A DNA stretch of 24,000 nucleotides from Pseudovibrio denitrificans JCM 12308 (lineage in GTDB: Bacteria > Pseudomonadota > Alphaproteobacteria > Rhizobiales > Stappiaceae): positions 86,443 to 110,442 of the forward strand of contig NZ_BAZK01000002.1 of assembly GCF_001310815.1 (NCBI RefSeq), written 5' to 3'. Under the pieces are notes generated by a model. It saw only the letters and a program-made list of their open reading frames with translations, was not told the origin of the DNA and did no database searches. Each line of letters begins with the position of its first letter. The stretch's first letter is position 1. Positions 5,310 through 6,607 of this stretch are shown piece after piece. The position numbers and the translations under genes are program-made.

Positions 5310-5483
5310 ATGAGCGCTCGTGCTGGACGGCCCCGTTATGGCTTTGAAGCTGCTGCAGATGTTCGGTCTGAACCGGATGATGTGGAGGTGGATGAACTGG
5401 CGGAGTTGGTTCGGGAGGTCACACGGTTGTTTCAACGAGACTACATTTTGCTTGCGACTTTTCTTCGGGCTCTGACGCGATAG
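5310..5483 (+). CDS. Small hypothetical protein, 57 aa (66 aa if it starts at GTG 5283)
   Basis: ATG 5310 is preceded by GGAGAAGG. The gene is tightly packed between flanking same-strand genes. The product MSARAGRPRYGFEAAADVRSEPDDVEVDELAELVREVTRLFQRDYILLATFLRALTR has an acidic middle and a hydrophobic C-terminal helix. I recognise no family. Confidence 0.45.
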   Translation: MSARAGRPRYGFEAAADVRSEPDDVEVDELAELVREVTRLFQRDYILLATFLRALTR

Positions 5484-5513
5484 GCAGACCCCTGTCAGCT
5501 CAAAAGGTGAGAT

Positions 5514-5930
5514 ATGGAACGGGACGTTACATACATTCGAGAGGAATTGGAGGAGGTGATCCTCAATCAGTTGCGCCGCTGGGAAGGGGTTATCGAGCAG
5601 GAAGAAGTGCGAACATTGTCCCGGTCCGGCGTTGAAGGTCTGCCAGGGATGTTGTGTCATCTGAGCCTGGCGCGGGATGCTTTGGTGAAGGCTGAAGGGA
5701 TGCTTGGCAGTGAGGGTGAGATTTCGGCAGCGGATCTGGTGCTTGGGTTCCGGGACGAGCGGCTTCAGGAAGATGCTGATCGGTATGACGACCGGGATGA
5801 TGAAGAGCGGTTGGTGCAGGACGGGGTCGAAGAGGAGCTCCTTGCCCGGTTTACCTCGACTGGCGACATCGAGTTTGAAGAGCGGAACGAGGATCGTGGG
5901 CCGGACCGGAACTCTGACTACAACTGGTAA
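5514..5930 (+). CDS. Highly acidic hypothetical protein, 138 aa
   Basis: A good RBS (AAGGTGAG) lies 2-3 nt before ATG 5514. By my count there are 39 Asp/Glu against 17 Arg/Lys. I recognise no family. Arg codons are mostly CGG (11 of 16), unlike the housekeeping genes in the window. Confidence 0.6.
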   Translation: MERDVTYIREELEEVILNQLRRWEGVIEQEEVRTLSRSGVEGLPGMLCHLSLARDALVKAEGMLGSEGEISAADLVLGFRDERLQEDADRYDDRDDEERLVQDGVEEELLARFTSTGDIEFEERNEDRGPDRNSDYNW

Positions 5931-5953
5931 GGCAGGACGTGAGGAGTGGGGCG

Positions 5954-6607
5954 ATGAGTACAGCCGTGAATGGAACGCAAGACGCTGGTCCGCAGAAGGT
6001 GACGGCAACGCCGGGGCCGGAGCTCAACTCTGCGCTGGATGATGCTGTGGTGCAGCTCACCAAGGTGAAGGAGAATGTGGATCAGGCGGCGAGTGAGTTC
6101 GCTCAGCTGCGTCAGGGCATTCCCAATTACAACGAGGTGGTGGCGGAGATCCGACAGCAGCAGGCACAGATTAACAGGGCCTGTGAAGATGCCACGACAT
6201 CTGCTCAGAGCATTGTGTCGGAGGTGGAGCAGGCGGCGGCCAAACTGTGTACTTCCATTGATGAAGAGATCAATACGATCAAGAGTGTGATTGGTACAGG
6301 GAGTGAGCAGGCGGAGGTGCAAACACCGCAGACGCCTCCGGTCCAGCCGCCACCACAGTTGGCGCCTGGGCAGGGCGTGCCTCCAGCTCAGGCTGGGGCC
6401 GGGATGGCACAGTTTCCGATGACTGGGCAGCCGGTTCAGGGCGGTGTTGCCAATCAGGAAATGATGGCCGTGCAGGTGGCGGAAGCTTTGAGGGATTATC
6501 TGAAGAAGGAGATCAACTCGGAGATTTCCAAGCAGATTGGGCCACTTAATGAAAAGCTCTCAGAGCTTCTGATTGGATATCTGCAGCAGCGATCCCGTGA
6601 TCGCTAA
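5954..6607 (+). CDS. Hypothetical coiled-coil-like / Pro-Gln-rich protein, 217 aa (222 aa from GTG 5939)
   Basis: GAGGAG lies 7 nt before ATG 5954. The N-terminal Q/E/A-rich helical part is ELNSALDDAVVQLTKVKENVDQAASEFAQLRQ.... The central linker is QTPQTPPVQPPPQLAPGQGVPPAQAGAG. The C-terminal helix is VAEALRDYLKKEINSEISKQIGPLNEKLSELL. I recognise no family. Confidence 0.6.
   Translation: MSTAVNGTQDAGPQKVTATPGPELNSALDDAVVQLTKVKENVDQAASEFAQLRQGIPNYNEVVAEIRQQQAQINRACEDATTSAQSIVSEVEQAAAKLCTSIDEEINTIKSVIGTGSEQAEVQTPQTPPVQPPPQLAPGQGVPPAQAGAGMAQFPMTGQPVQGGVANQEMMAVQVAEALRDYLKKEINSEISKQIGPLNEKLSELLIGYLQQRSRDR

Follow-up and report, generated by a model that had tools for sequence, protein, structure and literature searches.

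What do three small genes without a recognised family do in the middle of an R-body (reb) gene cluster? The question is raised by Pseudovibrio denitrificans JCM 12308, of which we analysed a stretch of 24,000 nucleotides (nt) (contig NZ_BAZK01000002.1, positions 86,443 to 110,442 of the forward strand; hereafter the window, whose own numbering is used below). R-bodies are coiled protein ribbons able to spring out into needles; they rank among the largest force-generating protein machines of bacteria and are being engineered as pH-driven actuators. To our knowledge, the assembly of the ribbon has not been explained outside the Caedibacter model. The three genes, named S57, A138 and C217 after the lengths of their products, are real accessory genes of the R-body cluster. 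Taken as a whole, they are best explained as the distal genes of an operon in which C217 and A138 would be non-Reb assembly or association factors and S57 would be dispensable, a reading to which we give a probability of roughly 0.55.

5310-5483, + strand: S57, 57 amino acids (aa), ATG start
5514-5930, + strand: A138, 138 aa
5954-6607, + strand: C217, 217 aa, ATG start; a GTG five codons upstream would give 222 aa

A previous inspection of the letters and open reading frames (ORFs), called here the sequence-only reading, had placed three same-strand ORFs at 5310-6607 between reb genes, and the coordinates, the gene calls and the flanking RebB genes agree with this. Genes matching Pfam RebB lie on both sides of the trio, one upstream (4299-4559) and four downstream (6726-8621). 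The gaps ahead of S57, A138 and C217 measure 19, 30 and 23 nt, a purine-rich, Shine-Dalgarno-like sequence stands before each of them (GGAGAAGGA, AAAGGTGAG and GAGGAG, respectively), and independent gene callers called the identical three genes in public copies of the locus. The ratio of non-synonymous to synonymous substitution rates (dN/dS) against other Pseudovibrio species is 0.09-0.23 for A138, 0.07-0.17 for C217 and 0.19-0.67 for S57, compared with 0.00-0.05 for a RebB gene. Because these values are low among Pseudovibrio orthologues, A138 and C217 are clearly protein-coding and under purifying selection. An antisense ORF of 256 aa (5238-6008) is not kept open in orthologous loci and was dismissed as a chance ORF.

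Codon usage had been put forward as a sign of a different origin or low expression, and the count itself is right: 11 of the 16 Arg codons of A138 are CGG, and none is found in the first 337 codons of ald. Third-position G is raised throughout the cluster, at 0.26-0.50 in the reb-cluster genes (0.36-0.50 from the sigma factor gene to C217) against 0.19-0.25 in the housekeeping genes of the window, and CGG is also used by another + strand gene elsewhere in the window. Thus, the codon bias does not by itself prove a foreign origin.

The earlier statement that the trio belongs to no curated family was borne out, since no Pfam or NCBIfam family was found at threshold for any of the three proteins, C217 alone showing sub-threshold coiled-coil noise. 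Nor did 13-14 diverse homologues of A138 and C217 give any Pfam or NCBIfam match above threshold, and profile searches of PDB sequences gave nothing below E = 0.07. None of the three proteins matches RebB (PF11747) even at E <= 1. When each family profile was aligned to the Reb profile by hhalign, the probability was 0.1%; membership of the trio in the Reb family was rejected on these grounds, as was the idea of C217 or A138 being divergent Reb proteins. The 'faint echo' of a Reb motif that had been seen in C217 (NSALDDAVVQLTKVK) gave the same profile-profile probability of 0.1% and is a chance resemblance.

How far the genes extend beyond this genome was followed in two ways. Direct database searches returned relatives in Pseudovibrio only. 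In addition, 78 reb loci, one genome per species, were collected by RebB query and all their ORFs were searched iteratively; the distribution counts for C217 refer to these loci. As judged by sequence comparison, C217 is conserved across three proteobacterial classes, A138 in Alphaproteobacteria only, and S57 at the level of the genus, where it is decaying in some species. The expectation that the trio would be conserved beside reb genes is therefore upheld for C217 and A138, far beyond this genome, but not for S57, whose orthologues are detected by sequence in core Pseudovibrio only. The conservation of C217 and A138 next to reb genes fits an R-body-linked role.

C217 homologues were found in 75 of the 78 loci, from Alpha-, Beta- and Gammaproteobacteria, and in 76 when the search was seeded with the Ruegeria pomeroyi protein; the first iteration recovered the nearer relatives only. 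The surveyed loci with a homologue include those of Pseudovibrio, Polycladidibacter, Roseibium/Labrenzia, Pannonibacter, Inquilinus and Parvularcula, of Paraburkholderia, Burkholderia, Trinickia, Chromobacterium and Zoogloea, and of Lysobacter, Xanthomonas, Dyella, Luteimonas and Marilutibacter. The homologue always lies on the reb strand, immediately upstream of the structural RebB genes. A reciprocal search that started from the R. pomeroyi megaplasmid protein returned 42 members of the C217 family and a Frigidibacter locus. The alignment over the three classes shows a common plan with a well-conserved C-terminal helix, Q-I/V-A-x-x-L-x-x-L-x-x-x-E-V...P-L. In the AlphaFold2 model, C217 forms helices at residues 22-55, 59-113 and 165-216 (predicted local distance difference test, pLDDT, 70-93) and a disordered P/Q-rich linker at 116-164. 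A Foldseek search with this model gave no PDB match and, in a viral library, matches at E > 2 only.

The sequence-only reading held that the trio matched nothing known, which was too strong for C217: HP2.1 and HP2.2 were described in 2013 (PMC3583457), and four hypothetical genes amid the reb genes of Labrenzia alexandrii were mentioned as well (PMC3764935). Raymann et al. 2013 defined a 'Group 2' reb synteny made up of the hypothetical proteins HP2.1 and HP2.2 (both ~205-220 aa), an extracytoplasmic function (ECF) sigma factor (HP2.3) and often a Crp-type regulator (HP2.4) (PMC3583457). C217, with 217 aa, no Pfam or NCBIfam family and no likeness to Reb, resembles HP2.2, which has ~205-220 aa and no conserved domain. 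It stands directly before RebB in 75 of 78 loci, most of which have an upstream sigma gene, and its 238-aa Reb-like neighbour agrees with HP2.1. HP2.2, unlike HP2.1, is listed in a survey from 2026 as a protein that is not homologous to Reb (PMC13430693). R. pomeroyi, a Reb-bearing taxon in the Raymann survey, has homologues of both C217 and the 238-aa protein, and a Crp-type regulator. C217 is thus a probable member of the HP2.2 family, equated by size, non-Reb character and synteny. The 2013 definition of Group 2 includes neither A138 nor S57 and proposes no function or structure. Our results extend the published descriptions of hypothetical genes in reb clusters and do not overturn them, and they leave the knowledge of R-bodies unchanged in principle; what they do is to narrow the candidates in Group 2, the commonest type of reb cluster, where C217/HP2.2, present in almost every cluster, becomes the first candidate gene.

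A138 is the second small family and marks the alphaproteobacterial clusters. Its charge had been given correctly: a recount yields 39 Asp/Glu against 17 Arg/Lys and a net charge of -22. The protein consists of a conserved N-terminal two-helix domain of ~65 aa (MERDVxYIREELDEV...W...ARxAL), a variable acidic and often Cys-rich segment, and a short C-terminal motif that is first acidic and then basic. Of the 40 alphaproteobacterial reb loci, 35 have a homologue, always immediately upstream of the C217 homologue, whereas the beta and gamma loci have none; two further Roseibium loci gave weak matches. In the megaplasmid cluster of R. pomeroyi, a 100-aa member overlaps the next gene, the C217 homologue, by 4 nt. 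When the A138 profile was run against 1.84 billion representative proteins, it found 10 matches, 3 of them repetitive giant proteins, and the family appears to be previously undescribed.

Several other identities were considered for A138. Two orthologues carry a DinB/DUF664 name in UniRef, an identity that was rejected: the window protein has no such Pfam match at E <= 1, nor do 13 diverse members at E <= 0.01, and A138 has a single conserved His, within Pseudovibrio only, instead of the conserved His triad of the DinB-type four-helix bundle. The possibility that A138 is a split-off N-terminal domain of the beta and gamma C217 proteins was rejected at an hhalign probability of 0.5%. The Lysobacter loci (L025, L029, L031, L037, L048, L062 and L067) have a conserved small ORF of their own (MDENLHYLLHEELEGLFD...) directly upstream of the C217 homologue; as a counterpart of A138 it was rejected, since the A138 profile matched it at E ~ 1. 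Cys-rich stretches (CCPCC, CHCVPGNGSGHCRNC, CCEQC) and a basic C-terminal tail were noticed in A138 relatives of Labrenzia, Roseibium, Inquilinus and Polycladidibacter (L036, L052, L073, L079 and L022), the Labrenzia homologue being a protein of 219 aa with a Cys-rich middle and a basic tail. Pseudovibrio A138 has neither feature. The Cys-rich relatives could be metal- or redox-sensitive.

S57 has a variable polar N-terminus and a conserved C-terminal helix, LFQRDYILLATFLRALTR, with conservation confined to the last ~20 residues; at the nucleotide level, the conservation of its 3' end is unexceptional against the neighbouring coding sequence. It is a pseudogene in P. ascidiaceicola, strain Ad37 and strain Alg231-02 (L014, L015 and L017), where the disrupted copies have lost ~90 nt at the 5' end and carry an in-frame TAG. 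To judge from these sequences, S57 is therefore dispensable in at least one lineage. A protein 98% identical to S57 carries the name of Pseudovibrio sp. FO-BEG1 (5.48 Mb contig), a strain said to be without reb genes (Raymann et al. 2013, PMC3583457). In other Stappiaceae, the place of S57 is taken by a small ORF of like build, with a polar N-terminus and one C-terminal helix that ends basic; hhalign comparisons with S57 are in the expected register and not significant (E ~ 0.02), and homology is unproven.

These data bear on the tentative idea that S57 is non-functional here, either a decaying remnant or a translated spacer without a role of its own. The deletion and stop codon in the three lineages would agree with this, as would the dN/dS of up to 0.67, the restriction of conservation to the last ~20 codons, and the fact that the protein can be detected by sequence within a single genus only. 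Against it, 6 of the 9 core-type Pseudovibrio loci (L009-L017), and also L006 and L007, have an intact ORF, the Shine-Dalgarno-like sequence is conserved and the start, ATG or TTG, keeps its place, dN/dS drops to 0.19-0.28 when the most distant species are compared, and the slot holds a small ORF of similar design in other Stappiaceae. We rate the idea as doubtful, and favour the view of S57 as a dispensable small protein.

The reb cluster lies entirely on one strand, in the order ECF sigma factor, 86-aa Reb, 238-aa protein, trio, four RebB genes and a rhodanese gene. The neighbours of the trio are as follows.

3641-4222, + strand: ECF-type sigma factor gene, 193 aa, first in the cluster (Pfam Sigma70_r4_2 and r2, NCBIfam TIGR02937)
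4299-4559, + strand: short Reb protein, 86 aa, RebD-like 'group 3' type (Pfam RebB, E = 4.9e-27)
4574-5290, + strand: 238-aa protein whose N-terminal extension varies and whose C-terminal domain is Reb-like but divergent (phmmer, jackhmmer)
6726-7066, + strand: first structural RebB gene, frameshifted in the window and 113 aa in the public assembly (Pfam RebB on the 5' part)
7335-7676, 7835-8155 and 8295-8621, + strand: three more structural RebB genes (Pfam RebB, E = 1.8e-23 to 5.9e-28; independent gene calls)

The 238-aa protein has no Pfam match. With phmmer, 81 long homologues were found at the equivalent position, all aligning over residues ~125-237, and a jackhmmer search started from this protein converges on the Reb family. 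According to the 2026 survey, P. aeruginosa RapA belongs to a 'secondary' Reb group, and S4/RapA proteins are Reb-like with an extended N-terminus (PMC13430693). By size, position and Reb homology, the 238-aa protein is probably the counterpart of RapA, HP2.1 and group S4.

Nearly all of the 78 loci share one gene order: ECF sigma factor, short Reb (75-99 aa), long Reb-like protein (~160-320 aa), a variable slot, C217, and 2-4 RebB genes; the sigma gene is found at the equivalent position in most of them. The same layout is seen in Labrenzia alexandrii DFL-11, which belongs to the same family (Stappiaceae), and for which an ECF sigma factor, a Reb, four hypothetical genes and two Rebs were mentioned and not analysed (PMC3764935); R-bodies were seen by electron microscopy in this strain (Fiebig et al. 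2013, PMC3764935). The Labrenzia/Roseibium loci contain, in this order, the long Reb-like gene, a small ORF and homologues of A138 and C217; on sequence comparison, these show what the four hypothetical genes of L. alexandrii would be. Between the Labrenzia small ORF and S57 no significant similarity was found.

The slot between the RapA-like gene and C217 is a site of lineage-specific genes. In the window it holds S57 and A138, in R. pomeroyi a 463-aa unknown protein and the A138 homologue, and in Paraburkholderia tropica a patatin-like phospholipase (Pfam E = 7e-18) and a phage-type lysozyme (E = 7e-48; L032 3897-5312 and 7752-8192), whereas many beta and gamma loci have no gene there. Similar lysozyme ORFs were noted in loci L035 and L064. 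The Paraburkholderia phospholipase and lysozyme are candidates for a cargo toxin and for a cell-lysis function in R-body release. The changing content of the slot, with its phospholipase, lysozyme and 463-aa protein and with no gene at all in many beta and gamma loci, could also mean that A138 and/or S57 are themselves lineage-specific cargo, toxin-related or immunity proteins and not parts of assembly, and Raymann et al. had raised the possibility of toxins for reb-linked hypothetical proteins (PMC3583457). We consider this quite improbable. Neither an enzymatic or toxin domain nor a signal peptide-like N-terminus is seen in A138, the 65-aa two-helix domain is its best-conserved part, and its gene stays directly before C217 even when other genes occupy the slot, as in R. 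pomeroyi, which suggests a partner of C217 and not free cargo; S57 is decaying in some species. A cargo role is thus possible for variable-slot genes and a poor fit for A138.

A possible regulatory layer is suggested by a promoter-like motif that stands in front of two groups of reb genes.

4233-4257, + strand: ECF-type promoter-like motif TTCACA-N14-GCGTC, upstream of the short reb gene
6657-6681, + strand: second TTCACA-N14-GCGTC motif, upstream of the structural RebB genes

The motif has 4 matches in the window against 0.10 expected; the remaining two are on the opposite strand, one of them within a reb gene. Both positions are occupied in every Pseudovibrio locus and in many other alphaproteobacterial loci. 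The downstream copy sits at the margin of 6672-6725, the best-conserved non-coding part of the cluster, with a pairwise identity of 0.93-0.98 among 10 Pseudovibrio genomes. From reb86, the gene of the 86-aa Reb, to C217 the intergenic gaps do not exceed 30 nt. The shared motif and the short gaps suggest two transcription units that would depend on the ECF sigma factor, one comprising reb86, the 238-aa gene, S57, A138 and C217, and the other the RebB genes; promoter function and co-transcription are deduced here from the DNA. A literature search found no published promoter motif for FecI2 and no expression data for Pseudovibrio, and the motif appears to be previously undescribed. Its conservation offers a handle on the regulation of reb clusters. 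A degenerate form, TTCCAA-N17-GCGTC, was seen at 3477-3507, ~125 nt before the sigma gene, and could serve autoregulation. At 4239-4262, the spacer and GCGTC element of the first motif are covered by an inverted repeat, GGAGAGA-N10-TCTCTCC; lying between the sigma gene and reb86, it could act as an operator or form an RNA hairpin.

The sigma factor also provides the main rival to an assembly role, because the reb-linked ECF sigma factors belong to group ECF237, for which no anti-sigma factor is known (PMC7826278). One or more proteins of the trio might be this missing anti-sigma factor or its antagonist and so give rise to all-or-none, stochastic reb expression; in strain PA14 of P. aeruginosa, expression of rebP1 is indeed stochastic and depends on FecI2 (PMC8322103). 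C217 and the sigma gene co-occur in nearly all loci, the trio proteins are small, cytoplasmic and helical, A138 being very acidic, and their genes apparently lie in the transcription unit of the sigma gene or just after it. Still, the trio is not adjacent to the sigma gene, a place always taken by the short Reb, C217 is always set against the structural genes, and beta and gamma clusters with the same sigma factor have neither A138 nor S57. No protein of the trio matched an anti-sigma Pfam family, and no H-x3-C-x2-C zinc motif was found in the alignments, although a novel type of anti-sigma factor is conceivable. We regard a sigma-regulatory role of the trio as unlikely. A separate observation concerns the short Reb, which across loci directly follows the sigma gene in the usual place of an anti-sigma factor; on the megaplasmid of R. 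pomeroyi (L088 2349-3276), the ECF sigma gene shares 11 nt with the short reb gene. This position raises the question of a regulatory role for the RebD-like short Reb.

An assembly or association role is favoured because non-Reb or accessory proteins with such functions have precedents, namely RebC, AZC_3784, and RapA with PA14_27675. RebC of Caedibacter taeniospiralis, an acidic non-structural assembly factor of 12.5 kDa encoded in the reb operon, promotes the ordered assembly of type 51 R-bodies without being built into the finished ribbon (preprint 10.64898/2026.05.21.725848). On pKAP298, the ORF after rebD encodes 114 aa (12,523 Da, isoelectric point 4.74) and equals the 12.5 kDa RebC; it runs across position 1 of the record and hence is missing in the feature table. 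A 95-aa ORF annotated as hypothetical follows it. The size of 56 aa previously used for RebC stems from the 1994 sequence and is out of date, so that the comparison of S57 with RebC by size no longer stands: RebC is twice as long, and the two have no sequence similarity. It is A138, with 138 aa and a net charge of -22, that resembles RebC in size and charge. Homology of the trio to RebC was rejected, as hmmsearch gave -0.5 to 0.3 bits against the three family profiles (5.0 bits for the Reb profile) and hhalign probabilities of <= 0.5% against the three families and <= 0.7% against all five profiles. According to Raymann et al. 2013 (PMC3583457), homologues of RebC are confined to Caedibacter.

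In P. aeruginosa, RapA (PA14_27680) and PA14_27675 co-purify with SDS-insoluble R-bodies (SDS, sodium dodecyl sulfate; PMC8322103). The PA14 reb cluster has the same order as the window, with sigma factor, short Reb, RapA, two or three unknown genes and structural Rebs (PMC8322103). RapA matches the 238-aa neighbour and none of the trio; PA14_27650 and PA14_27660 are reported as a two-gene operon, like A138 and C217 when compared by description. The reb operon of Azorhizobium, also compared by description, likewise has non-Reb genes embedded among reb genes, and one of these, AZC_3784, is essential for R-body formation (PMC5527310). A homologue of AZC_3787 was reported in Inquilinus limosus (PMC5527310), whose cluster contains A138 and C217 homologues. 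The Azorhizobium operon differs from the window in its Crp-type RebR regulator, in having no sigma gene described, and in its gene order.

From these comparisons a working model can be drawn. A five-gene operon of short Reb, RapA-like long Reb, S57, A138 and C217 would be transcribed through the ECF sigma factor of the cluster itself and expressed along with the four structural RebB genes. C217 would be its core member, an elongated three-helix protein of 'Group 2' clusters; an assembly role is likeliest for C217 because it is kept in nearly all such clusters and always abuts the structural genes, and it is most likely a non-Reb assembly or association factor. The conserved amphipathic helix at its C-terminus (Q-I/V-A-x-x-L-x-x-L-x-x-x-E-V) may bind helical Reb subunits and steer them into an ordered ribbon instead of aggregates. 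A138 may be an alphaproteobacterial add-on that acts with C217, the two genes being always adjacent and sometimes overlapping, in the role of an acidic RebC-like co-factor that is not homologous to RebC. S57 would be a young, fast-evolving and dispensable small protein of the variable slot.

Several points weigh against this model. No structural or sequence link leads from the trio to a protein of known mechanism. The C217 model is confident inside the helices only (predicted template modelling score, pTM, 0.26), and the all-helical A138 model is unreliable (pLDDT 54.6) and too poor for a fold search. The equation of C217 with HP2.2 had to be made with a 2013 paper that gives no accessions. 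PA14_27650, PA14_27660 and PA14_27675, which occupy the equivalent slot, are said not to be conserved in other proteobacteria (PMC8322103), two of the three non-Reb genes of Azorhizobium are dispensable for R-body formation (PMC5527310), and S57 is a pseudogene in the three Pseudovibrio lineages named above. A bolder pair of proposals goes beyond the model and is held only tentatively: C217 (HP2.2) might be the universal and essential assembly template or chaperone of Group 2, a counterpart of RebC with A138 as its partner, or C217 and A138 together might form the missing ECF237 anti-sigma system behind all-or-none R-bodies.

The sequence record and the surroundings of the cluster provided some further observations. 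Compared with GCA_900116575.1 (contig FPBD01000002.1), the window has 0 substitutions and eight single-base deletions, at 150, 6935, 7070, 10733, 11205, 12845, 13297 and 15404, none within 5310-6607. The deletion at 6935 splits the ORF of the first structural RebB gene (6726-7066), and that at 12845 falls in ald. All eight resemble errors made when one of the two records was sequenced or assembled. A stretch of ~80 nt before the second RebB gene (7212-7290) is missing from other Pseudovibrio species; because the core of this stretch, GCGTTCATTYGCATTCAC, turns up elsewhere in an uncultured Pseudovibrio, after the 238-aa gene and before S57 (L010 2496-2513), this suggests a small mobile or repeat element. 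Two tRNA genes (1814-1979) lie ~1.7 kb upstream of the cluster, the G+C content falls to 0.44 between them and the sigma gene, and a phage-type integrase is found at the corresponding boundary in Pseudovibrio sp. Tun.PSC04-5.I4 (L006 3606-4898), all of which is consistent with the cluster being part of an island.

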